NCBI RefSeq assembly: GCF_904830955.1
Contig: NZ_LR882970.1
Strand: one strand, 5' to 3'
Source of the DNA: Planktothrix tepida
Lineage (GTDB): Bacteria > Cyanobacteriota > Cyanobacteriia > Cyanobacteriales > Microcoleaceae
Length of the DNA stretch: 64,000 nt
The position numbers and the translations under genes are program-made. Positions 5,785 to 49,827 of this stretch are shown piece by piece; within the stretch, counting starts at the first letter, position 1; each line of letters opens with the position of its first letter. The notes beneath the pieces were generated by a model. The model saw nothing but the letters and a program-made list of their open reading frames with translations, did no database searches and was not told the DNA's origin.

Positions 5785-6105
<321 letters not shown>

Positions 6106-7970: not shown

Positions 7971-7980
7971 TGATATTCAC

Positions 7981-9190: not shown

Positions 9191-9199
9191 TCATTAGGA

Positions 9200-10545: not shown

Positions 10546-11964
<1,419 letters not shown>

Positions 11965-32294: not shown

Positions 32295-33047
32295 TTAAGT
32301 TAAATTGGCTCCTGCTGCGGCATCTAATAACCACCATAATTCCCCAACCGGTTGAATCAGTCGGCTAGGGTAGGCGATCGCATCGGCTTCCGAGGCAAAC
32401 ACCTGGGCCAAAGGTTCCTGTTTATTTGCCCCCGTAACCAAAAACATCACACAGCGAGCGTGATTAATCAGGGGTACGGTAAAGGTAATCCGAGGTTGAC
32501 CGTCTTTATTGCCAACGGTAATCAAGCGATCTTGAACGGTTAAGGCTTCGGTATGGGGAAATAACGATGCCGTGTGAGCATCATCCCCCATCCCCAATAA
32601 AACCACATCAAAAACGGGGAATTCTCCGGCATTGAGATGAAAAAACTGCTCTAATTCCCGATTGTAGGTTTCGGCATCAACCTTGGGGTCGTTAGCTGCC
32701 GTTGGCATCGGATGAAGATGAGTGGGGGGGAAATTAACTTGATCTAGCCAAGCTTGTCGCGCCATGCGTTGGTTACTGTCGGGATGATCAGACCGAACAT
32801 AACGTTCATCTCCCCAAAAGACATGAATTTTATCCCAAGGTAACGCTTGTTGAGCTAACGCTTCATATAACGGTTTAGGGGTGCTCCCTCCTGCTAAAGC
32901 GATTGTAAATTGATCCCGACTTTGAAGCGCGTCTTTAATTTTAACCAGAAGAATATCTAAAGCTCGCTGAGTGATTTCTTCTTTATTCGCTAGAATTTCT
33001 ATAAATTTTTCCATTAGGGTAGCCTCAAAGGTTAATTTAGGCATCAA
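32295..33047 (-). CDS. pgl: 6-phosphogluconolactonase
   Basis: FTIALAGGSTPKPLYEALA...IHVFWGDERYV is the Pgl/DevB signature. The true start may be the internal MEKF, giving 238 aa. Confidence 0.85.
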   Translation of the reverse strand: MMPKLTFEATLMEKFIEILANKEEITQRALDILLVKIKDALQSRDQFTIALAGGSTPKPLYEALAQQALPWDKIHVFWGDERYVRSDHPDSNQRMARQAWLDQVNFPPTHLHPMPTAANDPKVDAETYNRELEQFFHLNAGEFPVFDVVLLGMGDDAHTASLFPHTEALTVQDRLITVGNKDGQPRITFTVPLINHARCVMFLVTGANKQEPLAQVFASEADAIAYPSRLIQPVGELWWLLDAAAGANLT

Positions 33048-33154
33048 AGCAACAGGCTACAATAATGATAAGAGGTTTTGTCCGTTCGCGGTTGAGGTTT
33101 AGCACCCAGCAGTTAAGCTCAATGTTGAAAGTTAACAGTTGACTTCCCCCTAAT

Positions 33155-33325
33155 CCCCTTGTCCCCTTGTCCCCTTGTCCCCTTGTCCCCTTGTCCCCTT
33201 GTCCCCTTGTCCCCTTGTCCCCTTGTCCCTTGTCCCCTTGTCCCTTGTCCCTTGTCCCCTTGTCCCTTGTCCCCTTGTCCCCTTGTCCCCTAATCCCCCT
33301 ATCCCCTTGTCCCCCATCCCCTGAC
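33155..33325. repeat. Octa/heptanucleotide STR (CCCCTTGT)n, ~20 copies
   Basis: An uninterrupted run of CCCCTTGT/CCCTTGT units. Track ORF 33167-33382 is an artefact of this repeat. Confidence 0.9.
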
Positions 33326-33368
33326 TTCCCCTGTTCCTTTCAAAGCAGCAATAAGCTGTCTGTAAGCT

Positions 33369-34574
33369 ATGTCTATTTATAAACGACTTCCTGAATTGAT
33401 TCGTACTGTGGGAGAAGAATTGCAGTTTCTTTTACAACCTCGTATTTGGGGTTCTGTCAGTGTGGTGGTGGTGGTGGGAATTTTCTTTTGGCAGTTTTCC
33501 GAACACCCCGAATGGTTTAGTTTGGATCAAGAATCAACCCTTGATTCTGGTAACTCCGCGAGTCAACTTACCCCAGAAGAACAATCAATTGCGGCGGATA
33601 TTGATAGTTCTAAAGTGTTATTAGATGAGTTAAATCACAATAATTCATTCCTTGCACCTTTAAATACAACGATTTCACTCGGAACAGACTTATTTAAACA
33701 AGCTCAGGAAGCTGCTAAAAAGCCGGAATCCTCCTCGAATTCCAATCCTCTCGTAGACGCTATCCTCTCAGAATCAGCCCCCAAAACTCAACCCTCAATA
33801 TCGGTACAGGGGAATACTTCAACTCCTGTTAACAATCTGAATTCAGGTTCTGGTAATCCTTCAACTCCTACCGAGTCCAATCCTAACATCGGTTTAAATC
33901 AATCCGCAGAAACAACCAACCCCCAAACGACAACCACGGCTTTACAACAAGCGATGCAGAACTATCTGCAAACCCAGCAGACCGAAAATAAAGATCTGGC
34001 TGTACCCTCTAACACAGCGACTGAATCCTCACCAACCTCAGAAGTCCAAGAAACCAAGCCATCAACACTTTCACCAAATACCCTAACAAATCCCAACGCC
34101 GCGTTAAATCCCCTCTCAGGAACACCAGTAGGTGTGACACCCTTTACAGCTACTCCCACCATTACAGGACAGGCGATTCAACCGAGTTGGAGTGTTCCCA
34201 GAGCCAATACTAATCCTGTGGTGGGTACAGTTCCCCTTCCCGCTCCAAATCCCTACCAAACCAACGTGACCCTGCCTCCGGTTGTTCCTACCGTGCCCAC
34301 AGTAACACCTGGAACAGCCCCCAACCCTGGATATTCTAACCTCAATTCACTTCCGATAAATAACACTGCACCCTCCTATTCCGTCACGCCGAATACAGGG
34401 AGTTACAGCACGGTTCAACCCGTTCAACCGAATAGTTACATGACCCCCAGTAATATGAATCCCAACCTACAACCGGGTCAAATTGGTCAAACCCAACCTA
34501 ATTTTTCTGTTCCCAATCGTGTTCCAGGTCGTTATATTGGAGGGGGGGAAATTAATACGTTTGCCAATCCTTAG
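33369..34574 (+). CDS. Membrane-anchored low-complexity protein rich in Pro/Thr/Ser/Asn/Gln
   Basis: One TM helix (VSVVVVVGIFFW), then ~330 aa of PT-rich, Q/N-rich sequence. No catalytic domain. Confidence 0.5.
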   Translation: MSIYKRLPELIRTVGEELQFLLQPRIWGSVSVVVVVGIFFWQFSEHPEWFSLDQESTLDSGNSASQLTPEEQSIAADIDSSKVLLDELNHNNSFLAPLNTTISLGTDLFKQAQEAAKKPESSSNSNPLVDAILSESAPKTQPSISVQGNTSTPVNNLNSGSGNPSTPTESNPNIGLNQSAETTNPQTTTTALQQAMQNYLQTQQTENKDLAVPSNTATESSPTSEVQETKPSTLSPNTLTNPNAALNPLSGTPVGVTPFTATPTITGQAIQPSWSVPRANTNPVVGTVPLPAPNPYQTNVTLPPVVPTVPTVTPGTAPNPGYSNLNSLPINNTAPSYSVTPNTGSYSTVQPVQPNSYMTPSNMNPNLQPGQIGQTQPNFSVPNRVPGRYIGGGEINTFANP

Positions 34575-34747
34575 TTACTAATTAAATGGATGATAGCGTT
34601 AAAATCAGCGTCGCACTCTGGGGCAGTGGGCTAAAGTTTTGCTGTCAATCTTTAACTTCTCTAACTTTAAAACCTGAAATTTTACTTTGGTGTGATTTAA
34701 TTCCTGATTTATGGGATAATAAGAATGATAAAGATCATTTATGATAA

Positions 34748-35914
34748 TTGCTAATCACAAAAAATATGCTGACGCGGATCTATGTTAATAACTTTAGATG
34801 CCTAGTCAATTTTGAATTGACATTAGATAGCTTAAATCTCTTTCTAGGTTCAAATGGTTCGGGAAAAACTACTGTTTTTGATGTTTTAAGAAAACTACAA
34901 AAATTTATTATAGGTGATCAAGCTTTCCAACAAGATTATAAAGTATCAGATTTGTTTAAAAACAATGATTTAACAAGATGGCAAAAATCCCAGATTCAAA
35001 AATTTGAATTGGATATTCAAGGAAATGGTGGCATTTATAAATATACCCTAGAGATCGAACATCAAGGAGAGTATGCACCTCCTAGAATGCGACTAGAAAG
35101 CTTAACTTTTGACGGACAACCTCTATTTAATTTCTGGGTTGATGCGGGCGATAGAGGTATGCCTGTAGGTCAAGCTAGGCTTTATAATGACGATCCTAAT
35201 CGTGAAGGTGCTTTTTTACCGTTTTTTGATTGGTCGCGTTCTGGTATTGGTTTTATTTATGAAAGACCTGACAATCAAAAGCTGACCTGGTTCAAAAAAA
35301 GGATTGCTAACTTTTTTATTGTCGAGATCAACCCTTTTGTCATGGAATCAGAAAGCCGTCAGGAGGCAAGTTTGCCGACTTGGGATATGTCAAACTATGC
35401 AGCTTGGTACAGCTATTTATCTCAGGAATCTCAAGGTAAAATACTTAAACTAACGCTGGAATTACAAAATATTATCAAGGGATTTGATTCATTTCAAAAT
35501 CCTAAATCTGGTGATGTTAGGATTTTATCAGCATCTTTTACCCGTCCTAGCAAAACTACTTATCGACTTAATGAATTATCGCAAGGTCAAAAAGTTTTGA
35601 TTGCGCTATATACCTTAATATATTGTTCTCCTGATGAGAATTTTACGTTGTGTATTGATGAACCCGAAAATTTCCTAGCTTTACCGGAAATAAGACCTTG
35701 GTGGGATCAGGTGATGGAGTATTGTGTTAACAATGAAGCACAAGTAATGTTAATTTCTCATCACCCATCATTAATTAATTACTTAGCAAGCAATTCAGGT
35801 TATTGGTTTGAACGAGAAGATAATGAAACTGTCCGCGTACAGCGAATTACTGATAATAAAGAAGGTTTATCAGTTGCTAAACTTATAGAACTTGGATGGA
35901 TTTATGACGAGTAG
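34748..35914 (+). CDS. ABC-type (AAA_21/AAA_15-like) ATPase of a two-gene defense-like module
   Basis: Walker A GSNGSGKTT, ABC signature LSQGQK, Walker B LCIDEPENFL, H-loop ISHHP, and an N-terminal IYVNNFRCL motif typical of OLD/AriA/GajA-type ATPases. Composition is AT-rich. Confidence 0.8.
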   Translation: MLITKNMLTRIYVNNFRCLVNFELTLDSLNLFLGSNGSGKTTVFDVLRKLQKFIIGDQAFQQDYKVSDLFKNNDLTRWQKSQIQKFELDIQGNGGIYKYTLEIEHQGEYAPPRMRLESLTFDGQPLFNFWVDAGDRGMPVGQARLYNDDPNREGAFLPFFDWSRSGIGFIYERPDNQKLTWFKKRIANFFIVEINPFVMESESRQEASLPTWDMSNYAAWYSYLSQESQGKILKLTLELQNIIKGFDSFQNPKSGDVRILSASFTRPSKTTYRLNELSQGQKVLIALYTLIYCSPDENFTLCIDEPENFLALPEIRPWWDQVMEYCVNNEAQVMLISHHPSLINYLASNSGYWFEREDNETVRVQRITDNKEGLSVAKLIELGWIYDE

Positions 35915-36500
35915 ATATTATGATTTACCAGAAGTAACTATTCTCTGTGAAGATATTGACCAAGAGCGATTTATTAGAGAATATTTGATCTGTCGGGGAT
36001 TTAACAAGCGCAAAATTAAAGACTTTGGCAATCCTAAAGGGCAAACAATTAAGAATAACAATGCTTTGATTGTCAGGTATTATCCAAAGCTTATTAACAG
36101 TTATAGAAGTCGTAACTATAGAAATATTGCTGTAGTAGTGATGATTGATGCTGATAACGATACCCTATCTCATAGAATGCGTTCTTTACATATAGCATTA
36201 GACGAAACAGCAGGTAAGTTAAACCAAGATCCTCGAAAATCTGGTGATAAAGTTGCTATTTTTGTACCAGCTCGAAATATTGAAACGTGGTTTCGTTATA
36301 TTAATAGCTATCCGTCAAGTCATCACTGTGATGAGATGACTGATTATAAAGATAAAACAATGAGTCCAGAAGAGAGGATTGAATTAGCGGAAAGATCAGC
36401 TAGAATATTGGCTAGAGAAATATGTCCTCAAGGAGTCGATGCTATTGCTTTGCCTTCTCTACGTTATGCTTGTAGGGAGTTGCAAAGGTTATGGTTGTAA
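35892..36500 (+). CDS. TOPRIM-like small protein (DUF4276/DUF4435-like) partnered with the ATPase
   Basis: VTILCEDIDQERFI provides the conserved Glu on strand 1, and IAVVVMIDADNDTL provides the DxD motif with the spacing expected of TOPRIM. The ORF overlaps the ATPase stop by 11-23 nt (ATG 35892 or 35904). Confidence 0.6.
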   Translation: MDGFMTSRYYDLPEVTILCEDIDQERFIREYLICRGFNKRKIKDFGNPKGQTIKNNNALIVRYYPKLINSYRSRNYRNIAVVVMIDADNDTLSHRMRSLHIALDETAGKLNQDPRKSGDKVAIFVPARNIETWFRYINSYPSSHHCDEMTDYKDKTMSPEERIELAERSARILAREICPQGVDAIALPSLRYACRELQRLWL

Positions 36501-36523
36501 ATTTGGAGATCAGCATCATGTTT

Positions 36524-37702
36524 CTACTTAGAAGCACGAACTAATAAAAAACTTGCAATTCCAATACCTAAAAATGTTGGCAACCAAGCCGCGAAAAAGG
36601 GAGTGAGAATTTCTTTTTGACCCAAGGCTCCGGTGATAAACGAGAGTAAATAATATCCGAAAATCACGATAACGCTAATCCCGAAACTGGTCGCTCGGCT
36701 GGTACTTTGGGGTCTACTGCCTAATGCTACCCCCAATAACGCAAAGACTACACAGGAGAATGGGAGAGCATATTTTTGTTGAATTCTAACCTTGGTTTTA
36801 ACAATTCTTTGTTGATCACCGCTCAATTTCATTAACTTTAAATAATCTTGAGCTTGAGCAATATTCATCTCATCAAAATCTCGTTTTTTGGACGCTAAAT
36901 CCATTGGAGTGCGAGAGAGTTTAAGCTGTTTATGATCAAATCGAACAATATTACGATAAGAACCATCGGGATTAACAATATACACCGTACCATTAAAGAA
37001 ATCCCAAGTATTTTGGGCGAAATTCCAATTGGCAGATTTGGAAGAAATAATTTGAGTTAATTCCGGTTGAGAACGATCTAAAATCGTCACTTCCAACATT
37101 TGACCGCGATCAAATTTTTCAGCATAAAACAATCGCACTAAGCGACTAAATTTTTTATCTGTTCCTTCAATTTTTATTTTCTCATATTCGGGATAAAAAA
37201 TATTATCTTCCTGAATGGGAAGGTTGCCTTCATTTAACGCTTGTTCATAGGTGACAGAGGCTTGATAATTAGCAGCCGGAACAATCACTTCATTAAACGC
37301 AAACGTTAAACCTGTAATCAAAAAACTAAAGATTAAAGTTGGTATTAGTAACCGATATAAACTAATTCCACAACTTCTGAGAGCAATTAATTCACTATCA
37401 CTGGATAAACGGCCATAAACCATTAATGCACTTAAAATCATCGCCATCGGAAAGGCTAAAACGATGAATTCCGGCATTTTTAAGAGAAAAATCTGAACAG
37501 CAATGGAAACCGCCATCCCCGATTCTGCCACTTGTCGAACTAGGTCAAAAACCGTTCCCACCGTGAGGGCAACGGAGCTAAATAATCCGACTCCAAAGAC
37601 AAAGGGCGGAATGATTTCTTGGATTAAATATCGATCTAAAATTGAGAGATAGGGCAGGAAAATTTTACCTGAACCCAACGGTTTAAAAAGAGTAATTTTC
37701 AT
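36524..37702 (-). CDS. LPS export permease, LptF/LptG (YjgP/YjgQ) family
   Basis: ILDRYLIQEIIPPFVFGVGLFSSV start, 6 TM helices and a periplasmic beta-jellyroll insert. It overlaps lptB by 4 nt. Confidence 0.8.
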   Translation of the reverse strand: MKITLFKPLGSGKIFLPYLSILDRYLIQEIIPPFVFGVGLFSSVALTVGTVFDLVRQVAESGMAVSIAVQIFLLKMPEFIVLAFPMAMILSALMVYGRLSSDSELIALRSCGISLYRLLIPTLIFSFLITGLTFAFNEVIVPAANYQASVTYEQALNEGNLPIQEDNIFYPEYEKIKIEGTDKKFSRLVRLFYAEKFDRGQMLEVTILDRSQPELTQIISSKSANWNFAQNTWDFFNGTVYIVNPDGSYRNIVRFDHKQLKLSRTPMDLASKKRDFDEMNIAQAQDYLKLMKLSGDQQRIVKTKVRIQQKYALPFSCVVFALLGVALGSRPQSTSRATSFGISVIVIFGYYLLSFITGALGQKEILTPFFAAWLPTFLGIGIASFLLVRASK

Positions 37703-38427
37703 AGTTGAAAACTGTCACCAAGATAATACTGCCGCACTAGGGGATTATTGTAGAGTTCTTCGGCGGTTCCCGATGCAAAAATTTGTCCATCCCGCATAAT
37801 ATAGGCTCGGTCTGTAATCGCTAAGGTTTCTCGGACGTTATGATCCGTAATTAAGATTCCCAGATTGCGAGTGCGTAATTGAGCGACGATTTCTTGAATT
37901 TCAGAAACCGCAATCGGGTCAACTCCGGCAAAGGGTTCATCTAAGAGTAAAAACTGAGGCAATTCTAACCCCGCCGCTAAGGAACGAGCTAATTCTGTGC
38001 GTCGTCGTTCTCCTCCAGAAACTTGATAGCCTAAAGTGGAGGCAACTTTTTCTAAACGAAACTCCCGCAACAGAGTATGCAGACGTTTTTGCCATAAATG
38101 ACGCGGAACACGAGTTTCCTGCAAAACCAATAAAATATTATCCCTGACACTGAGATGGCGAAAAATACTGGCTTGTTGAGTTAAATAACCAATGCCTAAC
38201 CGGGCGCGTTGATGAATGGGTAAATGGGTAATATCAAGTTCATTGAGATAAACATTTCCTTGGGTTGGTTTTTCTAACCCCGTTGCAATATAAAATGTCG
38301 TGGTTTTTCCGGCACCATTTGGCCCTAATAATCCCACAATTTCCCCTTGAGAAACGGAGAGATTAACTCGACTGACAACGGTGCGTTTACGGTAAGATTT
38401 GTGAATATTCTCCAGCACTATTTTCAT
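37699..38427 (-). CDS. lptB: LPS export ABC transporter ATP-binding protein
   Basis: GLLGPNGAGKTT Walker A, LSGGERRR signature, LLLDEPFAGVD Walker B. 242 aa. Confidence 0.9.
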   Translation of the reverse strand: MKIVLENIHKSYRKRTVVSRVNLSVSQGEIVGLLGPNGAGKTTTFYIATGLEKPTQGNVYLNELDITHLPIHQRARLGIGYLTQQASIFRHLSVRDNILLVLQETRVPRHLWQKRLHTLLREFRLEKVASTLGYQVSGGERRRTELARSLAAGLELPQFLLLDEPFAGVDPIAVSEIQEIVAQLRTRNLGILITDHNVRETLAITDRAYIMRDGQIFASGTAEELYNNPLVRQYYLGDSFQL

Positions 38428-38449
38428 AACGGGGTTTGTTAGAAATAAT

Positions 38450-38995
38450 TTAAGGGTTACGAGGTGCTGAAGGTGAACTTAACGGGGTTTTAAACGCAGG
38501 TTTAGGATTAAAAGGTTCCACCGTTGCGTTTTTAGGGCTGGCGGTTTCATCGGGGACTAAATACATCGATTCTACTTGTCCGCCTCCTTGAGGTAAAGCA
38601 ATAAATCGTCCTTCATCAATCAAATAGGTGACGGTTTCACCTCGAATAGTGTTGCCTTCTTGCAAAACAAACACATTCCCACTCAGAACAATGCGACGTT
38701 CTCGACTAAAATATTGCGCTTGGGCGGCAGTGGCTTGAATACTGCGGGCGGGATAGTTAATCTGGACGTTACCCCGTGCGGTAACAATTCCCGTTTGAGC
38801 ATCCGCTTCTTGAATATCAGACCGAACGGTCATCGCCCGTCCCACAGCGTTTTTAGCCGCAGGTACGGTTTGTGCATAGCTAGGGGAGGAACTCATCACG
38901 CTATCTGTGACCAAACTACTGATTAGAGCAAAGGGTAACAGCAGTGTGAACCCCAAGGGGAGAGTGATTGATTTTAACAGCTTGGCAATCAGCAT
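38450..38995 (-). CDS. LptA/LptC (OstA-like N-terminal domain) periplasmic LPS transport protein
   Basis: TARGNVQINYPARSIQATAAQAQYFSRERRIVLSGNVFVLQEGNTIRGETVTYLIDEGRF is an OstA-like beta-jellyroll repeat. It sits directly upstream of lptB. Confidence 0.7.
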   Translation of the reverse strand: MLIAKLLKSITLPLGFTLLLPFALISSLVTDSVMSSSPSYAQTVPAAKNAVGRAMTVRSDIQEADAQTGIVTARGNVQINYPARSIQATAAQAQYFSRERRIVLSGNVFVLQEGNTIRGETVTYLIDEGRFIALPQGGGQVESMYLVPDETASPKNATVEPFNPKPAFKTPLSSPSAPRNP

Positions 38996-39132
38996 TATGA
39001 CCTTAAAAATCCTAAAACGGTAACTGGGTGATGCAATTGAGCAATCAACGGTTTTAATACGAACAATAAAAGTTTATTAAGTCTGTGTGCCTATTGTACT
39101 CGATTATTGAATGTTGACGGTTAGCGGTTGAT

Positions 39133-39195
39133 TCCCCCTCTTCTCTCTCCGTTTCCCCTTCTCCCCCTTCTCCCCGTTTCCCCCTCTCCCCTCAG
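39133..39195. repeat. CT-rich imperfect short tandem repeat (CCCCTTCT/CCCCGTTT-like units)
   Basis: Low-complexity pyrimidine repeat immediately 3' of lemA. Confidence 0.7.
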
Positions 39196-39199
39196 TCCT

Positions 39200-39976
39200 C
39201 TACGGAATATTAACTTTAGGAACTGTTTTATCCTCAGCTTGGAAATAAGGTTGTTCTTGAAAATTGAAAAGGGAACTGATCAAAATATTAGGAAAAGTTT
39301 GTAGAGATTGATTATAATTCTTGACAGCTTGGTTATAGCGTTGGCGTTCTGTGGCGATGCGATTTTCAGTTCCCGCTAGTTCATATTGAAGATTACTAAA
39401 GGTTTGAGAAGATTGCAGTTGGGGGTTAGTCGCTGCATATTGATTCAATTGTTGAATAACCGTACTGATTTGAGTGCTGGCTGCTATTTTTTCGGGGATA
39501 GAATTGGCTTTTAAATAAGATTCTCTGGATTGAATTAAAAGTTGAATAATTTCTTTTTCCTGTTTAGCTTGGGCGTTTGTAACTGCGACTAAATTAGGAA
39601 TTAAATCGGCACGACGTTGCATTTGGTTTTCTACTTGCGCCCAGGAAGCATTAACATTTTGTTTGTGGCTGGCAAGAGAATTATAAATCAAAATACTCCA
39701 GAGTAGGATAACGCCAGCAATTCCCATCCCAACTTTTTGTAAAACTTTATTTTTTTCTTGAGATTGTTGCCGTTCAATCTCTTGTCGTTGATGTGTCTCC
39801 CGAACTTCTTGAATCGCTTTTTCAATCAATTCTGGGGGGATGGATACTTCTTTTCCAGCCTGTTGTAACGCTTCTACAGAATAACTATTATTGGATTCAG
39901 AATACAGTCGAGATGCAACTTCTAACACTTCAGATGCAATCTCTTCAGGAATTTTAGAATTTTCGGGATTGTTCAT
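39200..39976 (-). CDS. lemA: LemA family protein
   Basis: NASWAQVENQMQRRADLIPNLVAVTNAQAKQEKEIIQLLIQSRESY matches the LemA core. It has an N-terminal extension and one TM helix. Confidence 0.75.
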   Translation of the reverse strand: MNNPENSKIPEEIASEVLEVASRLYSESNNSYSVEALQQAGKEVSIPPELIEKAIQEVRETHQRQEIERQQSQEKNKVLQKVGMGIAGVILLWSILIYNSLASHKQNVNASWAQVENQMQRRADLIPNLVAVTNAQAKQEKEIIQLLIQSRESYLKANSIPEKIAASTQISTVIQQLNQYAATNPQLQSSQTFSNLQYELAGTENRIATERQRYNQAVKNYNQSLQTFPNILISSLFNFQEQPYFQAEDKTVPKVNIP

Positions 39977-40201
39977 AGGAGTTTCTCTCCATCAATTTTA
40001 GCATTCAAACCCCTAAAATAGAATATTTTTATAGGGATTAAAAAGTGTTAATCTTTTTGAAAAAGGCTTTTTTTAAAGGGTAATAAGTATTATTTCCTCT
40101 GGACTAGCCTCAAAATAGATCGGATGCGGGTTTCCAGACATCCTACAAATCACCTATCATTTGATTAAAGTAGATTAGCCGGAACGTTTAGGACGTAGAC
40201 A

Positions 40202-43003
40202 ATGGTATCTCCCGAATCCTCATCAATGTCTTCTGATTCGACCTTAGAACCCATTACCACTTGGCACAGCTTCGCTGCTGAGAAAGCCCTTAAGGTACTC
40301 GATACAGATAGCGAAACAGGGTTAACCCCACAACAGGTGACTCAACGACAAGAACAATATGGTCTGAATGAATTAGAAGAAGGCGCGGGTCGCAGTCCCT
40401 TGGAGATTTTATGGGATCAGTTCACGAATATTATGCTCGTGATGCTGATTGCTGTCGCCATTGTATCTGCCTTTATCGATTTACGAAAGGGGGCTTTTCC
40501 CAAGGACGCCGTTGCCATTTTTGCGATTGTGATTTTGAATGGGATGTTGGGCTATTTCCAAGAAAGCCGTGCAGAACAAGCCTTAGCTGCCCTAAAACGG
40601 ATGTCTTCACCCAAAGTTAGGGTGATGCGGGACGGTAAGCTGTTGGAAGTTTCAGCGAAAGAATTGGTTCCAGGGGATATTATGTTTCTCGAAGCGGGGG
40701 TGCAAATTCCGGCGGATGGTCGCTTAATTGAAGCTCAGAATTTGCAAGTCCGAGAAGCCGCCTTAACGGGAGAAGCGGAAGGGGTGATTAAAAAACCCAG
40801 TGTGGAATTACCCGAAGATGCACCGTTAGGCGATCGCATTAATATGGTATTCATGGGGACGGAAGTTGTCCAGGGACGGGGAGAAGTCATTGTCACCAAT
40901 ACCGGAATGACGACGGAACTGGGACGCATTGCGGAAATGATTCAGGGAGTCGAAAGTGAACCCACTCCCCTCCAGCAACGGATGTCTCAGTTAGGAAATG
41001 TGTTGGTTAGTGGGTCTTTAGCCTTAGTCGCCTTGGTGGTGATTGGTGGCGTGATTAGAACGGGCAGTTTTAGTAGTTTAGAAGATTTATTAGAAGTTTC
41101 GCTGAGTATGGCGGTGGCCGTTGTTCCCGAAGGTTTACCGGCGGTGGTAACGGTGACTTTAGCCATTGGAACCCAACGCATGGTACGACGCCATGCCTTA
41201 ATTCGTAAACTCCCGGCGGTGGAAACCCTGGGTTCTGTTACCACTATTTGTTCGGATAAAACCGGAACTCTCACCCAAAATAAAATGGTGGTACAATCAG
41301 TTTATACCTTAAATGAAGTGTTTCAAGTCACCGGAGAAGGGTATGCTCCCGTTGGGGAATTACGATTGATCACCTCTGATGAAAATAGCACCCTCTCTCC
41401 TGCTGCTGAAGTTTTACAACCTATTTTAACAGCCTGTGTTTTATGTAATGATGCTCAATTACAACAAGATAAAAATCAATGGATTATTTTAGGAGATCCC
41501 ACAGAAGGAGCGTTATTATCGTTAGCGGGAAAAGTCGGTTTATTTAGAGAAACTCATAATCAACAAAACCCCCGTATTGCTGAAATTCCTTTCTCTTCAG
41601 AACGCAAGCGCATGAGTGTGATTTGTCAATCTGATGATGAATTTTCGATGTTTACAAAAGGATCACCGGAGTTGATTTTAGCTCAATGTGATGCTGTTTT
41701 GGTGGGGAATACAACGGTTTCTTTAACTGAAGTTGACCGCCAACGAATTCTCGACCAAAATAATGAAATGGCCGGAAAAGGATTACGAGTTTTAGGATTT
41801 GCCACTCGATCTTTAACAACATTACCTGAAGAAGGCACTGAAGAAGCCGCCGAACAGGAATTAGTTTGGTTAGGATTAGTGGGAATGTTAGATGCGCCCC
41901 GTCCTGAAGTTCGAGAAGCGGTTAAACGGTGTCGAGAAGCCGGAATTCGTCCAGTGATGATTACCGGAGATCATCAATTAACGGCGAAAGTCATTGCTCA
42001 AGATTTAGGGATTGCTTCCCCTGATGATTTAAGTTTAACAGGTCAAGAATTACAGAAACTTTCTCAAACAGAATTAGAACAAGAAGTTGAACAAGTCAGT
42101 GTTTACGCCAGGGTTTCTCCTGAACATAAACTTCGCATTGTTCAAGCCTTGCAAAAGAATGGTGAATTTGTAGCCATGACCGGGGATGGAGTCAATGATG
42201 CTCCCGCCTTAAAACAAGCCGATATTGGCATTGCGATGGGAATTACCGGAACCGATGTTAGTAAAGAAGCCAGTGATATGATTTTGCTGGATGATAACTT
42301 TGCCACCATTGTTGCCGCCACAGAAGAAGGACGAGTGGTTTATAGTAATATTCGCCGTTTTGTTAAATATATTCTCGGTAGTAATATTGGGGAAGTTTTA
42401 GTAATTGCCTCTTCTCCGATTTTAGGTTTAGGGGGTGTTCCTTTATCGCCATTACAAATTTTATGGATGAACCTTGTCACGGATGGTTTACCTGCTTTAG
42501 CCTTAGCGATGGAGCCCGCCGAACCTGCGGTGATGCAACGTCCTCCTAATGATCCCCGTGAAAGTATTTTTGCGCGAGGATTAGGATTATATATGGTGAG
42601 AATTGGGATTATTTTTGCCATTTTAACGATTGTTTTAATGGTTTGGGCTTACGATCATACTAAAATCGCGGGTAATCCTGAACGTTGGAAAACAATGGTG
42701 TTTACAACCTTATGTTTAGCCCAAATGGGTCATGCTATAGCAGTACGTTCTGATAACCAATTAACAATACAAATGAATCCCGCAACCAATCCTTATCTTT
42801 GGGCTGCGGTTTTATTAACTACCGTTCTTCAGTTACTATTAATTTATGTTCCGCCCTTACAAAGTTTCTTTGGAACTCACCCGTTAACGTTCACTGAATT
42901 GTTAATCTGTTTAGGTTTTAGTGCCTTAATGTTTATCTGGATTGAAATGGAAAAACTGGTTCAAAGATGGTTTTTCCAACGTCGTCAAACCCCCAGTTTG
43001 TAA
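40202..43003 (+). CDS. pacL: Calcium-translocating P-type ATPase (PacL/SERCA-like)
   Basis: [14 protein letters not shown] phosphorylation motif, [30 protein letters not shown] hinge, 10 TM helices. 933 aa. Confidence 0.9.
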
Positions 43004-43305
43004 AGGATAACTCTTAATTGAAACCCCAAGATAACGATTATAAACTCGGTTTTTGGGTCTGGTGACATTGACGTTTGACAGGGTTAGTGGTAGCGTTGCA
43101 CTCAACAACCTACGGCTAACCCTATCCTTTTTAAAACGGTCTTTGTTGTGTTTGGGTTTCGTCCCTGAACCTAACTTCCGAGTGGGTGTTGTGAGTTTCA
43201 CTCAACAGTATTGCCAATTGACCCCATTCGCCATAGAATCAGGACGAGAACCCAGGGTGCTGGAAATGGGGAAATAATTAATCAGGAATATAGCCAAAAA
43301 CACTT

Positions 43306-44817
43306 ATGAGTTACCTAAATTTAATTTCTTTTTTGGGAATCTTTGGCTTATGCTTTATAGCTTGGTTATTCTCAGAAAATAAACGAGTCATCCCTTGGCG
43401 AACAATGGGTTTAGGGATTGGCTTACAATTGGTTTTAGCCTTTTTCGTATTTCTTTTCCCACCCACCAGAACGGCTTTAGAATGGTTTAGTAGCCTCCTC
43501 GATAGCTTATTTACAGCCGCAGATACAGGGGCTAGATTTGTTTTTGGGAAAAATATTGTCCCCATTCCTGGGCAAACCCCCGATGTAAATTTAGGTTATA
43601 TTTTTGCATTTAGAGCTTTACCAACCGTTATTTTCTTCTCTGGCTTAATGGCACTGTTATATAACTTAGGTGTGATTCAAGTTGTTACCAATATTTTTGC
43701 TAAGTTATTCTATAAAACGATGCGTTTAAGTGGGGCAGAAGCCTTAAGCGGTGCAGCCAATATCTTTGTCGGAATTGAAGCCGCCATTGTGGTTAAACCC
43801 TACTTAGAAAAGATGACCCGTTCTGAACTGTGTGCGATTCTAAGTTGTTGTTTTGGAACGGCTGCTTCATCAACCTTAGCCATTTATGTCAGTTTCTTAA
43901 GACCCGTTTTTCCGAATATTTTAGGGCATTTAGTGTCCGCGTCTATCATGGCGATTCCAGCCTGTTTTGTGATTTCTAAAATCTTAGTTCCTGAAACCGA
44001 CAAACCCTTAACATTAGGAAAATTACCCGAAGAAAAGAAAGAAGAAAACTTAATTACCCACGAAGACGGAGAACCCCATTTAGAAACCGTTGGCGGTGAA
44101 CTGATGGAGCGAGTTAGCCCCCTAGACTCAGCCATTATTGGAGCCTTAGATGGGGTGAAAATGTCCGTAGCCATTGCTGCGGTTTTGATCTTAATTTTAG
44201 GATTAGTTTCTTTAGTGAATCAATTTTCAGCCTGGTTAGGTTTATTACCAAGTCCGGTGGGAGATGTTTTTAAAGTTTTAACGTTAGCGAATATTTTGGG
44301 ATTTATATTTTATCCCTTAACAATTTTAACAGGAGTTCCCTTTGAAGATTCTTGGACAGCTTCAGTCATTATTGGTCGTCGGTTATTAGAAACAGCAATT
44401 CCTCCCTATCAAGCCTTAGCAGAAGCCGCCAAAGAAGGATTAATTACTCCTAGAACCGTGTTAATTGTTAGTTATGCTTTATCAGGTTTTGCCCATGTAG
44501 CTTCGGTGGGAATTTTCGTGGGGGGAATGGTCGGTTTAGTTCCTTCTCGGCGAAAAGATATTTCCGAATTAGGGTGGAAAGCTTTATTTGCTGGAACATT
44601 AGCTACGATGATGATTGCTTGTTTAGCCGGATTCTATGATAATGGGAATCCAAGTATTATGGGTGAACCTGCGACAACCCCGGCCGTTAGCACCCCTGCG
44701 GCTCCTAATACAACGGTTTCACCCACGCCAACCCCTGCGCCGACGGTAACTCCAACCCCTAAACCTTCTCCTTCCCCTAAAGCGACAACAGCACCCTCTG
44801 AAAAGCCTAAATCTTAG
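43306..44817 (+). CDS. nupC: Concentrative nucleoside transporter (NupC/CNT family) with a Pro/Thr-rich C-terminal tail
   Basis: CNT-family topology with conserved GxEAA.VxKPY and SCCFGTAASSTLAIYVS blocks. Confidence 0.85.
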   Translation: MSYLNLISFLGIFGLCFIAWLFSENKRVIPWRTMGLGIGLQLVLAFFVFLFPPTRTALEWFSSLLDSLFTAADTGARFVFGKNIVPIPGQTPDVNLGYIFAFRALPTVIFFSGLMALLYNLGVIQVVTNIFAKLFYKTMRLSGAEALSGAANIFVGIEAAIVVKPYLEKMTRSELCAILSCCFGTAASSTLAIYVSFLRPVFPNILGHLVSASIMAIPACFVISKILVPETDKPLTLGKLPEEKKEENLITHEDGEPHLETVGGELMERVSPLDSAIIGALDGVKMSVAIAAVLILILGLVSLVNQFSAWLGLLPSPVGDVFKVLTLANILGFIFYPLTILTGVPFEDSWTASVIIGRRLLETAIPPYQALAEAAKEGLITPRTVLIVSYALSGFAHVASVGIFVGGMVGLVPSRRKDISELGWKALFAGTLATMMIACLAGFYDNGNPSIMGEPATTPAVSTPAAPNTTVSPTPTPAPTVTPTPKPSPSPKATTAPSEKPKS

Positions 44818-44848
44818 GTCAAGAGAGAGTAGCAGCTGACTGAATTAT

Positions 44849-44871
44849 GGGCGGGATGACCCCGCCCCTAC
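44849..44871. repeat. GGGCGGG-N5-CCCGCCCCTAC hairpin element, copy 2
   Basis: Identical stem and CTAC tail as the copy at 15615-15639, with a different loop (ATGAC). It lies between nupC and the SLC13 transporter. Confidence 0.6.
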
Positions 44872-44922
44872 AAACCCCCAATTGCGATTTTCTGAGTTTC
44901 GATACACCCGATTAGATTTTTC

Positions 44923-46728
44923 ATGACCAATATTATTCTGACTCTTAGTATTGTTGTTCTGGCTTTAATTGCCTTTATTTTTGAGTGGCTTCCCGTTGAT
45001 TTAACAGCCCTCACCGTTACCGTTGTATTAATGATTTTGAAGCTCGTTACACCGGATGAAGGCATATCTGGGTTTGGTAACTCTGCCACAATTACGGTGA
45101 TGGCAATGTTTATTTTAAGTGCTGGAATTACTAAAACAGGAGTTGTACAAACCGTTCGAGATGGGTTAGTGAAATGGGGCGGAAAAACCGCTAACCAACA
45201 AATTTTCGTTATGGGATTAATTGTTGGCCCCATTACGGCATTTATTAATAACACCGCAGTAGTTGCGATTTTCTTACCCATTATTGAAGATTGGTGTCGC
45301 AAACAAAAAATTTCCCCCTCTAAATTATTAATTCCTCTTTCCTATGTAACCGTTTTAGGGGGAATGATTACCGTCATTGGAACCTCAACCAACGTTTTAG
45401 CCAGTGGTATTTCTAAACAACTTGGATATGGGGAATTTCAGTTATTTCAGTTTACGGTATTAGGCATTGTCACCTTTATTATCGGTTTAATTTATTTAGC
45501 TATTATTGCTCCTCGGCTCTTACCTGACCGTAAACCCCCCAATTTTGAGGTTCTTGAACAGGAATATGGGTTAAAAGATTATGTCAGTGAACTCGTGATT
45601 ACTCCTCGTTCTAGTTTGGTGGGACAAACCGTTAACGAAAGTGAAATTCAACGCAAATTTGATTTAGATGTACTTGAATTAATTCAAAATAAAATGCGCT
45701 TTCCCCAACCTTTGGGGGATAAAGTGTTAAATGCAGGAGATATTTTAATTGTTCGCAGTAGTCGAGAAGATTTACTCAAAATTCGCGATGAGAGAGGTTT
45801 AGAACTGCTTCCTGATGTTAAGTTTAAAGAGGAATCCTTAGAAACAGTATTGAGTTCAGGAGAAGAAAAAATAGCCGAAGTTTTAATTTTATCTAATTCT
45901 CGATTAATTGGAACAACTTTAAAAGATTTAAGATTTCGTCAACGCTATAACGCAACGGTTTTAGCCATTCGTCGTGGTTCAGAATTAGTTCAAGGACGAT
46001 TAGGGAAAGTTCCCTTAAGATTTGGGGATTTGTTATTACTTCAAGGCCCTAAACAAAGCTTTATTGGGTTACAAACCACACGGGAACTATTAGTTTTAGA
46101 AGAACGAGATGTAGAAAACCTAAGACAAGATAAAGCTTGGGTCGCACTGGCAATTATTTTAGGCGTTATTGTTCTCGCTGCTTTTAATATTATGCCAATT
46201 TTGGTTAGTGCTTTAGCAGGTGTGATTTTAATGGTGATTACAGGATGTATTAAACCCGGAGAAATCTATGGTGCTGTCCGTTGGGATGTCATCTTTTTAT
46301 TAGCAGGATTAATTCCATTAGGAATTGCAATGGATAAATCCGGTGCAACTCAATGGTTAGCTGATACATTGGTCGGTTTTGGCGGTCATTTATCCGGTTA
46401 TTGGATTTTATTATTCTTCTATATTGCCACATCAATTCTGACAGAAATTCTCTCGAATAATGCAACGGTTGTTTTAATGATTCCGATTGCGGTAAAAGTT
46501 GCTATAACATTAGGCTTAAATCCCTTTGCCTTTATGTATGCTGTTACCTTTGCCGCTTCTAATAGTTATATGACCCCCATTGGTTATCAAACGAATACAA
46601 TGGTTTACAGCCCTGGAGGATATAAATTTTTCGACTTTACCCGTGTTGGAGCTCCTTTGAATTTAATCCTAACTATTGTCACCCCATTATTAATTGTTTG
46701 GTTATATGGATTATCCCCCATCAAATAG
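44923..46728 (+). CDS. SLC13/DASS-family anion permease with two central TrkA-C (RCK_C) domains
   Basis: N- and C-terminal transporter halves flank two TrkA_C-like modules (LVGQTVNESEIQRKFDLDVLELIQ... and LIGTTLKDLRFRQRYNATVLAIRRG...). Confidence 0.85.
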   Translation: MTNIILTLSIVVLALIAFIFEWLPVDLTALTVTVVLMILKLVTPDEGISGFGNSATITVMAMFILSAGITKTGVVQTVRDGLVKWGGKTANQQIFVMGLIVGPITAFINNTAVVAIFLPIIEDWCRKQKISPSKLLIPLSYVTVLGGMITVIGTSTNVLASGISKQLGYGEFQLFQFTVLGIVTFIIGLIYLAIIAPRLLPDRKPPNFEVLEQEYGLKDYVSELVITPRSSLVGQTVNESEIQRKFDLDVLELIQNKMRFPQPLGDKVLNAGDILIVRSSREDLLKIRDERGLELLPDVKFKEESLETVLSSGEEKIAEVLILSNSRLIGTTLKDLRFRQRYNATVLAIRRGSELVQGRLGKVPLRFGDLLLLQGPKQSFIGLQTTRELLVLEERDVENLRQDKAWVALAIILGVIVLAAFNIMPILVSALAGVILMVITGCIKPGEIYGAVRWDVIFLLAGLIPLGIAMDKSGATQWLADTLVGFGGHLSGYWILLFFYIATSILTEILSNNATVVLMIPIAVKVAITLGLNPFAFMYAVTFAASNSYMTPIGYQTNTMVYSPGGYKFFDFTRVGAPLNLILTIVTPLLIVWLYGLSPIK

Positions 46729-46788
46729 TAGAGAAGAAGCGGTAGTTCACCAATACTAAACCCCGGGTTAATTCTAATTTTTGCTATA

Positions 46789-47280
46789 CTATTGAACAGC
46801 CATTGTCACTAATTCTTGGAGCTTTTGATCGAGCATTTCTGCAACTCTCAAAATTTTCGGATTCTCAAATCTACCTAATAGAGATGAAGGTTGATCATAG
46901 GTAATATAAGTTTTGCCATTATATTCATCATACACAAACAATCGCAGGGGAACGTAAAGACCGACTGCCGGGTCTTCTTCAAACATTTGATTCGCAATCA
47001 GGGGATTACCAATTATATAAAGTTTAGCTTGTTTAAATTTGCCACATAAGGAAAGCACTTTACCAGATTCAAGGTGTGTAAAAATCATTAAATCATGTTT
47101 ACCCACCATTGATTTAACTGCATTTTCTACTTCTGTAAAAGAGGCATTTGCATCTATCAACTTTTGAAAAATCAGATTATTAGCTTTACCAACCATTGAC
47201 TCTATAGCCGTGGTGACTTGGGCAAAGGATTTTTCTGAAGACACTTTTATGTGGTTTACGGTGAAATTAATAGTTTCCAT
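46789..47280 (-). CDS. DUF302 domain protein
   Basis: 163 aa. GNPLIANQMFEEDPAVGLYVPLRLFVYD fits the DUF302 core. Confidence 0.6.
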   Translation of the reverse strand: METINFTVNHIKVSSEKSFAQVTTAIESMVGKANNLIFQKLIDANASFTEVENAVKSMVGKHDLMIFTHLESGKVLSLCGKFKQAKLYIIGNPLIANQMFEEDPAVGLYVPLRLFVYDEYNGKTYITYDQPSSLLGRFENPKILRVAEMLDQKLQELVTMAVQ

Positions 47281-47317
47281 ATCTGTTAATTTCGGCTTTT
47301 ACAAATATTTTAAATAT

Positions 47318-47360
47318 CTAATTTTTAAACCCCTAGCCAATAGCAAGGGGTTTAATATTT
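47318..47360. terminator. Stem-loop AAACCCCT-N11-AGGGGTTT followed by a T-run; candidate intrinsic terminator
   Basis: 8-bp stem. On the + strand it is followed by TAATATTTTTTTT, and on the - strand by TTTAAAAATT. It sits just 3' of the ACP gene. Confidence 0.4.
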
Positions 47361-47380
47361 TTTTTCAGACCTGAATTAGC

Positions 47381-47653
47381 TTATAATCCAGCTAGATATT
47401 TTGATAAAGACTCAATTGAGGGGTAATCATAGGTTATGGTTGGATCAATAGAACCTCCCAACCAGTTCTCTAAATCGCTAGTTAATCCAATAGTCGCTGA
47501 GGAATCCAAGCCATAGCGGTCAAAAGAAGCTTTAACATCAACTTCATTGGGATCAATTTCCAGAAGTTGGGCTATATAAGAAACCAACCAAGCTTGAATA
47601 GCAGATTGGTTCTTGTGGGTTTCAACAGCGATTTCTTGATTTTGAATTGCCAT
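47381..47653 (-). CDS. Stand-alone acyl carrier protein
   Basis: 90 aa with the phosphopantetheine-attachment motif YGLDSSATIGL. It is cotranscribed with four desaturases and a FAAL. Confidence 0.75.
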   Translation of the reverse strand: MAIQNQEIAVETHKNQSAIQAWLVSYIAQLLEIDPNEVDVKASFDRYGLDSSATIGLTSDLENWLGGSIDPTITYDYPSIESLSKYLAGL

Positions 47654-47862
47654 GATAATTTTTTCCTGAATGGGTCTGGGATAAAAATTTTGCTCACCAA
47701 AAATGGGAGCAATGGATTGGGTCGTTAAAAGTCCCTTCCCTAAATTATAAACCTAAATTTCTGGGTTTTTTTCTGGGTTTTTATGAGTGAACATTAAATT
47801 TCTAAAACAAGAAAATTAGGTTCATAATTAAGACAGTAGACGAGATAGATTTTAGTATCCTG

Positions 47863-48828
47863 CTATGTTGCCTTTCTAGCTGCTAAAAAAGCTTTTTTAG
47901 CTTTGATAGTATCGGCTTTAGGAATCTTGACATCCCAAATTAAACCCAGCTTTTCTAAAATGAGGACAACCCAGCCCCCGATATCAACTTGCCACCAGTC
48001 GAAACCAAAAATGGCTGATTGCGGAAAAGCATGGTGACTATTGTGCCATCCTTCACCCAAGGAAGGAAGAGCCAGCCAGAGATTGTTCCGGCTGTGATCA
48101 GGGGTATTAAAGGAGCGACCGCCAAGGACGTGACAAAAAGAGTTGACGCCATTGATGAGGTTATTGACAAAGAACATCCGCACCAGTCCTCCCCAAAGAA
48201 AGCCTTGAAAAGCTCCCAGCCATGAGTTTGTCAAAACACCGCCTAGGATAGCAGGAATGACCAGTCCTAAAATCACCCACAGCCAATAATATCGGCTCGC
48301 TGTTGTTAGGGCTTTGTCCCGCAGTAAGTCTGGAACATAGTGGATGGTATTGGGGTGTTCTCTGTTGGTCGCTAACCAGCCATCATGAGCGTGCCAAAAG
48401 CCTTTGATCTGATCCGTAACTCCTTCTCCAAAAAGATGGGGAGAATGAGGATCTCCGGGTTGATCGGCATATTCATGATGACGACGATGGGCGGCTACTG
48501 CCAACAGCAAGGGGCCAGGGGCTGCCATAGAACCTAGAATTGCTAAGGTCACTCTAACAACGACATTAGCTTTAAACGCATTATGGCTAAAAAGGCGATG
48601 CCAACCCACAGTAAAGCCAATTTGAGTTAAGAACCACAAACTGATAAACAGCCCTAAGTCCACCCAAGTCATAGGAATTCCGAACAATAGTAAAACAATG
48701 GCGGTGATGAATCCCAAAAAAGGTACAACTTCAAACAAGATGAAGTGTATGGTTTGAGGAACTCTCAGGTGAGGGGCTGTGACGGTTTTTTGTCTTTTGT
48801 CTGGATTAACAAGAGGCTCTGTAATCAT
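47863..48828 (-). CDS. Membrane fatty-acid desaturase, Delta9 acyl-CoA/acyl-lipid type, paralog 1
   Basis: Three His boxes: HRLFSH, HRRHHEYAD, HNSHHAFP. 4 TM helices. Confidence 0.85.
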   Translation of the reverse strand: MITEPLVNPDKRQKTVTAPHLRVPQTIHFILFEVVPFLGFITAIVLLLFGIPMTWVDLGLFISLWFLTQIGFTVGWHRLFSHNAFKANVVVRVTLAILGSMAAPGPLLLAVAAHRRHHEYADQPGDPHSPHLFGEGVTDQIKGFWHAHDGWLATNREHPNTIHYVPDLLRDKALTTASRYYWLWVILGLVIPAILGGVLTNSWLGAFQGFLWGGLVRMFFVNNLINGVNSFCHVLGGRSFNTPDHSRNNLWLALPSLGEGWHNSHHAFPQSAIFGFDWWQVDIGGWVVLILEKLGLIWDVKIPKADTIKAKKAFLAARKAT

Positions 48829-48894
48829 TGGATCAGCTAGGTTTATGATTGCGGTTAATCATTGCTTTTCTGGGTTTAATGCTCAACTTGAAGG

Positions 48895-49827
48895 CTAGTT
48901 GCAGGCTTCATTACAACTCACCTTTCTTTTTTTAGCGGCGATCGCTTCGGCTGTAGGCATTTTCAAGTCCCAAACCAAACCTAGCTTTTCCAGTAGTCGA
49001 ATCACGAAGCCACCGACATCGATTTGCCACCAGTGGAAACCATGAATAGCCGCATAAGGAAAAGCATGGTGGTTGTTGTGCCATTCTCCACAGGTGAACA
49101 AGGCAACCCAGAGGTTATTGCGGCTATAGTCGTCAGTCTCAAAGGGACGATTTCCTAAGAGATGGGCCAGAGAGCCAACCGTCCAAAAACCTAAATGGTG
49201 TTGAAGGAAGATACGGAGAAAGCCGCCCCATAATGTTCCGGTCAACGCCCCCATCCAAGTTCCGGTGATTACTCCACCAATAACACCAGGAATCGCTACT
49301 CCCAAAAATAGCCACAAATAATAAAGTTGGCTAATTCTGTTCAGCATGGGATCTCGCACCATGTCTTTAGCAAAGACAAAGGTGTTCGTGAGTTCATGAT
49401 TGAATGTCCAACCGACATGAGAATGCCATACACCTTCTAAAAAGCCCAATTTTTGCTCTTCTTTAACAAAGGGAGAATGGGGATCTCCGGGGGTATCGCT
49501 GTATTTGTGGTGACGGCGATGGGTGGCTACCCAATAATTGAGGGGGCCTTCTGCGGCCATAGAACCCAGGACAGCCAGGATAATTCTCACCGTCTGATTA
49601 GCCCCGAAGGCGCAGTGGGCAAAGTGTCTATGCAGCCCTACTGTTACGCCAATCGCTGTTAAAAAATACATAATTAGCAATAGCCAGATATCTACGGCAC
49701 TAACACCGATCTGAAAAGCCAGGACTACTGCTGCTACAGATCCGCTTAAGGGAATGATGAGATTGCTGATGCCGTGAATTTCTTGTTGTCTTTTCAGGCG
49801 ATCGCTTTTAATTGTGATTGCTTGCAT
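48895..49827 (-). CDS. Membrane fatty-acid desaturase, paralog 2
   Basis: His boxes HRHFAH, HRRHHKYSD, HNNHHAFP. Confidence 0.85.
   Translation of the reverse strand: MQAITIKSDRLKRQQEIHGISNLIIPLSGSVAAVVLAFQIGVSAVDIWLLLIMYFLTAIGVTVGLHRHFAHCAFGANQTVRIILAVLGSMAAEGPLNYWVATHRRHHKYSDTPGDPHSPFVKEEQKLGFLEGVWHSHVGWTFNHELTNTFVFAKDMVRDPMLNRISQLYYLWLFLGVAIPGVIGGVITGTWMGALTGTLWGGFLRIFLQHHLGFWTVGSLAHLLGNRPFETDDYSRNNLWVALFTCGEWHNNHHAFPYAAIHGFHWWQIDVGGFVIRLLEKLGLVWDLKMPTAEAIAAKKRKVSCNEACN

Follow-up and report, generated by a model that had tools for sequence, protein, structure and literature searches.

A two-gene cassette encoding an ABC ATPase with a Toprim-like protein in Planktothrix tepida, a candidate defence system distantly related to HEC-01

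The gene pair described here is located in a 64-kb stretch of Planktothrix tepida DNA (the window), which matches strain PCC 9214. It encodes an ABC ATPase and, from an overlapping gene, a Toprim-like protein (the partner), and it is an accessory, horizontally acquired and mobile stand-alone two-gene unit. Judged from profile matches, the pair is best placed in the PADLOC candidate type HEC-01 (Hma-embedded candidate 1), the closest named type, as one of its divergent members. More broadly it would fall into the group of split ABC ATPase and Toprim systems, together with PARIS, AbiL and the MAD3-MAD4 pair of MADS. By analogy with these systems, the cassette probably serves in defence or abortive infection, as an ABC ATPase with a coupled Toprim-like nuclease. 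Two-gene systems of this split kind are already known, and the pair is new as a divergent member of them. An original prediction made from the sequence had named a PARIS/OLD-type system and had called cyanobacterial members essentially uncharacterised, and the latter statement stands as far as the literature searched showed.

The features of the locus are as follows (positions of the window):

34575-36523: islet of about 1.95 kb, between a conserved gene of 401 amino acids (aa) and the lptF/G-lptB-lptA operon
34575-34765, plus strand: upstream intergenic region, presumed promoter and leader of the cassette, 30.9% guanine plus cytosine (GC)
34766-35914, plus strand: ABC ATPase gene (382 aa, 44.5 kDa, isoelectric point 5.0)
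34748, plus strand: alternative TTG start of the ATPase, giving an open reading frame 34748-35914 of 388 aa
35904-35914, plus strand: overlap of the ATPase 3' end with the partner 5' end, 11 nt, junction TTTATGACGAGTAG
35904-36500, plus strand: partner gene, Toprim-like predicted metal-dependent nuclease (198 aa, 23.3 kDa, isoelectric point 8.9)
35892, plus strand: alternative TTG start of the partner, giving an open reading frame 35892-36500 of 202 aa
36501-36523: spacer of 23 bp that separates the partner from the lptF/G stop codon (convergent gene), the right-hand edge of the inserted block
36524-37702, minus strand: lptF/G gene, convergent, followed by lptB and an lptA-like gene
33369-34574, plus strand: 401-aa flanking gene, low-complexity, with no Pfam match

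The starts of the two genes were placed at the ATG codons at 34766 and 35904, because all homologous ATPases begin with MLxRIY and all homologous partners with MT(S/T), and because DNA similarity between loci sets in about 10-30 nt 5' of these ATGs. On this comparison the two codons are the likely starts. The 388-aa frame with a TTG start, as called earlier, is present in the DNA, but the homologues favour the ATG start and a protein of 382 aa. The partner gene had been described as starting inside the stop codon of the ATPase; this is not so, and the genes overlap by 11 nt, which suggests translational coupling.

The ATPase and its Toprim-like partner

The ATPase was matched by Pfam AAA_21 (3.5e-18) and AAA_15 (1.3e-16). 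In the numbering of the 382-aa protein, Walker A comprises G28, N30, G33 and K34, the Q-loop Q78, the signature S272 and G274, Walker B D298 and E299, and the H-loop S331, H332 and H333. The catalytic motifs were invariant in 36 ATPase homologues, down to 50% identity, and the complete set read from the sequence at the outset was thereby confirmed. The same applies to the reported N-terminal xIxNFR motif, which is present as IYVNNFR and corresponds to the start of AAA_15. The structure model is a Rad50/SMC/PtuA/AriA-like head without a long coiled coil. Structure comparison of this model gave values of 21.1 for Rad50, 20.9 for the Retron Ec83 ATPase, about 20.8 for SMC heads, 19.8 for PtuA, 16.9 for AriA (rank 25), 16.1 for Retron Eco8 OLD, 14.7 for TsOLD and 13.2 for GajA. 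Because Rad50, SMC heads and PtuA rank above AriA, the ATPase as modelled has a head of the Rad50/SMC-like class, which is met repeatedly in defence systems, and is not specifically AriA-like.

The partner was 100% identical to PCC9214_02756. Three motifs were recognised, ILCED (E16, D17), IDAD (D82, D84) and PARNIETW (P122...N125-I-E127-T-W129, with E127 and W129), the last of which the earlier reader had missed. Of 108 family sequences, 105-108 retain the motif residues, with identities as low as 24%. E16 was present in 107 of the 108 and D82 and D84 in all of them, and the predicted Glu and DxD pair is therefore real and near-invariant. The AlphaFold2 model (pLDDT 83.5, pTM 0.84) consists of strand-helix units at residues 10-15, 38-41, 75-80 and 117-120, followed by three helices. 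In this model E16/D17 follow strand 1, D82-A-D84 follows strand 3 and the PARNIETW motif follows strand 4. A Glu ending strand 1 and a DxD after strand 3 form the Toprim signature described for DUF4276, RloB, OLD and RNase M5 (PMC12065111). The conserved Glu and DxD of the partner occupy these two places, and because of this match of modelled motif placement the protein is called Toprim-like, with good but not complete confidence.

No name at a curated threshold was obtained for the partner from Pfam, and NCBIfam and PHROGs gave no match at all. A sequence search of the PDB with the partner and two family profiles gave nothing meaningful, and a Foldseek search of the PDB with the partner model gave nothing significant. 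The family is large, with 1,743 clusters at 50% identity found at E <= 1e-3, of which 498 at E <= 1e-30; a few of the homologues carry a precomputed PF11536 match. When 50 family members were scanned against Pfam and PADLOC, matches were obtained to Pfam DUF3226 (30/50, best 9.8e-6), DUF4276 (6/50) and RloB (2/50), and to PADLOC HEC-01B (23-28/50 across models, best 1.9e-6), PDC-M38B (16/50), PDC-M31B (9/50), mad4 (4/50) and AbiLii (1/50). Pfam DUF4435 and PADLOC AriB matched none of the 50 (0/50). At one other locus (L054) a separate gene with a clear Pfam DUF4276 match was observed at 10144-10531, 4.6 kb from a cassette of the partner family in the same genome, and two Toprim-like lineages therefore coexist in that genome.

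Relation to known systems and proposed mechanism

HEC-01 is a PADLOC candidate consisting of an ABC ATPase with a TOPRIM protein, embedded in Hma systems (bioRxiv 10.1101/2024.01.29.577857). Its prototype, from Pseudomonas agarici NCPPB 2472, consists of WP_060782633.1 (395 aa) and WP_060782632.1 (192 aa, 'DUF4276 family protein'), and both sequences were taken from supplementary table 2 of that study. The best PADLOC model for the window ATPase was HEC-01A PDLC04182 (2.3e-23), matched over its full length (residues 7-372 against model positions 3-380 of 406). The same model was the second best for the prototype ATPase (2.9e-124), and the window ATPase and prototype HEC-01A align end to end at 21% identity (E 3e-11). 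The window partner and its family matched the HEC-01B models 04200, 04202 and 04205 weakly, though as the only consistent matches, by E-values and not as PADLOC threshold calls; the window partner gave 2.7e-5, 5e-4 and 5.4e-4 with three HEC-01B models, besides one match to PDC-M38B. The prototype partner matched 04202 at 2e-30, 04205 at 1e-14 and 04200 at 1e-7. Both components are regarded as distant relatives of HEC-01 because they are linked to it through intermediate profiles.

The layout of the two pairs is also alike. The genes are adjacent, co-directional and overlapping. The first encodes an ABC ATPase of about 380-395 aa and the second a Toprim-like protein of about 190-200 aa. Both partners have acidic residues after strand 1, a DxD and a later Glu. 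The window pair differs from HEC-01 in its very divergent partner, which stays below the Pfam DUF4276 and DUF3226 thresholds, in an overlap of 11 nt against 4 nt in the prototype, and in its cyanobacterial host. Moreover, it is not embedded in an Hma or other defence system and stands alone beside the lpt operon, with the 401-aa gene and lptF/G-lptB-lptA as neighbours. No Hma system was seen at the cassette loci in other contexts either, though toxin-antitoxin genes often adjoin. The PADLOC-DB names PDLC04143 and PDLC04144 look swapped, as the prototype Toprim protein matches the 'HEC-01A' model PDLC04143 (3.9e-90) and the prototype ATPase the 'HEC-01B' model PDLC04144 (3.6e-227). The window ATPase also matches PDLC04144.

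PARIS, AbiL and MADS share the architecture of an ABC ATPase paired with a Toprim-like protein (PMC11464382; PMC12065111). AbiL (AbiLi/AbiLii) and MADS MAD3-MAD4 resemble the window pair as ABC ATPase pairs with a Toprim-like (RloB/DUF4276) protein. The window ATPase matched PADLOC AbiLi at 5.9e-19 and mad3 at 9.1e-19 and scored 45.7 bits with NCBIfam MAD3 against a cutoff of 420, but the matches of the pair to AbiL and MADS are partial and weaker than those to HEC-01. Among the genes neighbouring the pair there were no candidates for other MADS components.

In PARIS the scaffold AriA sequesters AriB until a phage trigger frees it to cleave tRNA (PMC11464382). A genuine PARIS in the window would have an AriA hexamer sequestering a DUF4435 Toprim AriB, which phage anti-restriction proteins free for tRNA cleavage. 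The predicted gene architecture is indeed that of PARIS (class 4 OLD-like), namely a split ABC ATPase (AAA_15/21) and a separate Toprim-family effector in a two-gene operon, but membership in PARIS was not supported. In the profile comparison proposed with the original prediction, AAA_21 and AAA_15 matched the ATPase, but DUF4276 remained below threshold on the partner, and DUF4435 (PF14491), the family of the PARIS partner, as well as PADLOC AriB and Toprim_Old gave no match to it even at E <= 1. The two PADLOC 'AriA' models that matched the ATPase, PDLC02980 (length 304) and PDLC02979 (length 373), agree in length and match coordinates with Pfam AAA_21 and AAA_15 and therefore carry generic domain information only. 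The lesson for annotation is that AAA_15/AAA_21 matches labelled 'AriA' do not identify PARIS. Both window proteins are also smaller than those of PARIS, and Rad50 and PtuA are closer structural neighbours of the ATPase model, which lacks the long coiled coil, than AriA is. Finally, PARIS is often carried on phages and satellites, whereas no phage or satellite carriage was found for the window partner. PARIS membership was rejected because the partner has no DUF4435 or AriB match and the 'AriA' matches are generic; the missing DUF4435 match already refutes it in large part, and it is regarded as exceedingly improbable.

A place among the OLD or Gabija proteins was not supported either, because P2 Old and GajA carry ATPase and Toprim in one polypeptide, whereas the window pair is split into two genes. 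OLD classes 1-3 were rejected on this ground and on the absence of a Toprim_Old match at E <= 1. In contrast to Gabija and Septu, the pair has no GajB helicase or PtuB HNH partner.

Since PARIS is likewise an operon of a split ABC ATPase and a Toprim protein, a similar sensor-and-nuclease logic is plausible for the cassette. The ATPase would act as sensor and scaffold and hold the nuclease inactive. A cue derived from phage or foreign DNA, read through ATP binding or hydrolysis, would release or open the nuclease, and its acidic site (E16/D17, D82/D84, E127) would then cut nucleic acid and stop the growth of the infected cell. In P2 OLD, itself a tRNase, destabilisation of the tetramer opens the Toprim site (bioRxiv 10.64898/2026.07.10.737580). 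The target in the present case would be tRNA if the nuclease behaves like AriB and P2 OLD, and DNA if it behaves like GajA. It is by analogy that we infer complex formation, nuclease activity, a trigger, a target and any anti-phage effect. A more specific proposal, put forward tentatively, is that the partners form a hitherto unrecognised, Pfam-unassigned clade of Toprim-like effectors which, each with its own ATPase, may represent a defence type that stands alone and is separate from PARIS, AbiL, MADS and the tested HEC-01, with its own trigger and target, spreading between genera as a bare cassette without mobility machinery. The named members of this clade (about 1,700 clusters at 50% identity) are filamentous cyanobacteria and giant sulfur bacteria.

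Several results weigh against a defence role and against the placement with HEC-01. The sole HEC-01 tested did not protect E. coli from any of the phages used (bioRxiv 10.1101/2024.01.29.577857). With Pfam, the window partner reached only 14 bits for DUF3226 (0.044; gathering threshold 27) and 12.6 bits for DUF4276 (0.16; gathering threshold 30.2). The profile of the 108-sequence partner family gave no significant match to the prototype DUF4276 protein, with an hhalign probability of 4% and 4 bits in hmmsearch, and the hhalign alignment with this prototype HEC-01B was a spurious C-terminal one. The window cassette adjoins housekeeping genes outside any defence island, and searches of IMG/VR (pattern scan), INPHARED, PLSDB and PHROGs did not detect the partner.

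Split ABC ATPase and Toprim systems form an expanding class of abortive-infection immunity. Recent work has identified PARIS and P2 OLD as tRNases. For the DUF4276/DUF3226-type branch no activity is demonstrated, its one tested member having been negative. The cyanobacterial family is worth testing in a host closer than E. coli, because it is large and strictly paired, its catalytic residues are kept and there are signs of recent transfer between genera.

Pairing, insertion sites and spread

The partner gene was found directly 3' of the ATPase gene at every informative locus, with an overlap of 11 or 14 nt in eight loci from seven further contexts. The junction TTTATGACGAGTAG recurs unchanged in Planktothrix, Phormidium, Microcoleus and one metagenomic locus. 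In Thiomargarita the overlap is also 11 nt long and its sequence differs (TTTATGACAACTAG), and in a more distant subfamily it is 14 nt. Identity to the window pair falls jointly, from 96% to 45% for the ATPase and from 85% to 33% for the partner. A distant ATPase at one locus (L002) was without a partner. Pairing of the two genes is strict, with probable coupling of their translation. From one context to another the cassette stays similar as far as the partner's stop codon, and the similarity does not extend past the edges of the two genes.

For the synteny scan the neighbouring LptF/G protein was used as query against related cyanobacteria, with one genome per species. Among the 40 loci with lptF/G synteny that it returned, none had either cassette gene within 7 kb. 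The interval from lptF/G to the 401-aa gene was occupied as follows:

L012 (Planktothrix sp. FCentRs1_7), 2901-2996: empty, with the flanking stop codons 97 bp apart and unrelated intervening DNA
L007 (Planktothrix sp. UBA8402), 5957-8713: GmrSD_N protein, split HEPN gene and HigB
L005 (Planktothrix sp.), 8180-11838: 3.7 kb containing a gene for an NYN protein besides unknown genes
L045-L048 (metagenomic Planktothrix): the cassette at exactly the same site, with an ATPase 96% identical

This interval is thus a variable cargo site in Planktothrix, and the site is useful for the study of defence turnover in bloom-forming cyanobacteria. The forecast of a variably present islet, and not a conserved core operon, was borne out by the 40 syntenic loci and the empty site. 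The 401-aa upstream gene was rejected as a component of the system because it is also present at that empty site. Beyond the 401-aa gene, in the interval towards pgl, an RRXRR-HNH gene is inserted in one of the metagenomic loci (L046, 2096-3373).

In other genomes the cassette was located in the following contexts:

Phormidium: between dnaK and a DUF4112 gene
Microcoleus: between a PIN toxin-antitoxin pair and guaA
Thiomargarita: beside YefM/YoeB
L054: between PemK/MazE and Fic
L003 (metagenomic cyanobacterial contig), 4386-9231: between leuC and a methyltransferase-leuD pair
Nostoc: beside a P-type ATPase

A toxin-antitoxin gene lies within about 1.5 kb of the cassette in four of the other contexts. 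On L003 the cassette and the methyltransferase gene split putative leuC and leuD (Aconitase and Aconitase_C subunit genes), and CRISPR cas1/cas2 are found 4.5 kb downstream.

Divergence was compared between the window and three other loci (L045, L049 and L050). Against L045, which has the cassette at the same site, synonymous divergence (dS) was 0.12 for the ATPase and 0.17 for the partner, compared with 0.43 for lptF/G, 0.47 for lptB and 0.77 for the 401-aa gene. The cassette is thus 3-4 times less diverged at synonymous sites than its flanks. Against Microcoleus and Phormidium its dS was 0.20-0.38, which is below the core-gene dS between two Planktothrix lineages. These low values, relative to the flanks and across genera, indicate that the cassette was transferred or recombined recently, also from genus to genus. 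The ratio of non-synonymous to synonymous divergence (dN/dS) was 0.14-0.19 in the ATPase gene and 0.51-0.67 in the partner gene. By these ratios both genes are under purifying selection, with selection on the partner much more relaxed or more diversifying, and the partner evolves much faster than the ATPase.

These data bear on a housekeeping or stress role in nucleic-acid processing, in which the pair would work either in repair, as an SbcCD/Rad50-Mre11-like module, or in RNA maturation, as an RNase M5-like nuclease with its ATPase. Such a role is improbable in view of the absence from 40/40 syntenic loci of relatives, the empty site in one close relative, the different genomic context in each genus, the synonymous divergence far below that of the flanks and the fast evolution of the partner (dN/dS 0.5-0.67). 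In addition, the ATPase is broken in one Planktothrix copy of a sister subfamily. That copy was observed in Planktothrix sp. GU0601_MAG3 and a related assembly (L057/L058, 3895-5564), where the ATPase is in pieces of 285 aa and 90-102 aa and the partner is intact; the split may be a pseudogene or an assembly frameshift.

The split ATPase in this related cassette of Planktothrix sp. GU0601 and the raised dN/dS of the partner (0.51-0.67) would both fit an acquired cassette that is decaying or survives as a non-functional remnant. In the window, however, both frames are intact and of full length, the catalytic residues are all kept, dN/dS is below 1 for both genes and the overlap junction is conserved, and a remnant is considered very improbable.

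A selfish addiction cassette resembling a toxin-antitoxin system is, with the housekeeping role, one of the main alternatives. The ATPase would restrain a toxin nuclease, and the unit would be kept by post-segregational killing or by general exclusion of foreign DNA and not for dedicated immunity to phages. The compact two-gene unit with overlapping genes, its recent horizontal spread and the classical toxin-antitoxin pairs that often adjoin it are in line with this explanation, as are the Pfam description of AAA_21 as a putative AbiEii toxin domain and the lack of defence by the HEC-01 prototype. However, no plasmid carriage was found in PLSDB, and the architecture fits the experimentally validated abortive-infection systems PARIS and AbiL. 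Relatives of the ATPase on two cyanobacterial plasmids are only 26% identical, and at the one such locus inspected, on a Dolichospermum plasmid, no partner was annotated beside the ATPase. An addiction cassette is therefore judged unlikely, and a defence or abortive-infection system is preferred; addiction and abortive infection resemble each other in mechanism, and one need not exclude the other.

Composition and neighbouring features

The islet has a GC content of 34.7%, compared with 40.1% for the window, and falls in the 5th percentile of equal-sized windows. The description as an AT-rich two-gene islet is correct in a moderate sense, though the islet is not the lowest region of the window, the stretches at 8-10 kb and 24-28 kb having an equal or lower GC content. 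HIP1 (GCGATCGC) was found at 33 sites in the window, about 1 per 1.9 kb, and at none in the islet. Its absence had been reported correctly but has no weight as evidence, because a block of 1.95 kb without HIP1 is expected by chance at about 37% and the HIP1-free zone also spans core genes. The absence of HIP1 was therefore rejected as a sign of foreign origin. The HIP1-free zone of 8.4 kb (32382-40829) covers the core genes pgl, lptF/G, lptB and lptA as well as the cassette, and a second HIP1 gap of like size is located at 40838-48937.

No mobility genes were found among the open reading frames at 30-41 kb of the window, as had been stated, and there is no tRNA gene in the whole 64 kb. Rfam gave no match in 33000-38000, and terminal direct or inverted repeats around 34400-36700 were matched at chance level only. 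Promoter-like matches upstream of the ATPase were at consensus level with no excess over the shuffled expectation. Across the cassette contexts the upstream regions share similarity in their final 10-30 nt up to the ATG only, and a conserved regulatory element was not found in them.

In the gap between pgl and the 401-aa gene a tandem array of the 8-nt unit TCCCCTTG was observed at 33154-33314 (20.6 copies, 92% matches), and this array yields a spurious 71-aa PCPLVPLS open reading frame. A second defence locus was found about 25 kb from the cassette, a convergent type II restriction-modification pair at 8231-10411 of the window with a GC content of 33.9%:

8231-9190, plus strand: endonuclease of the Cfr10I/Bse634I family (8e-46)
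9200-10411, minus strand: C-5 cytosine methyltransferase (9.6e-47)

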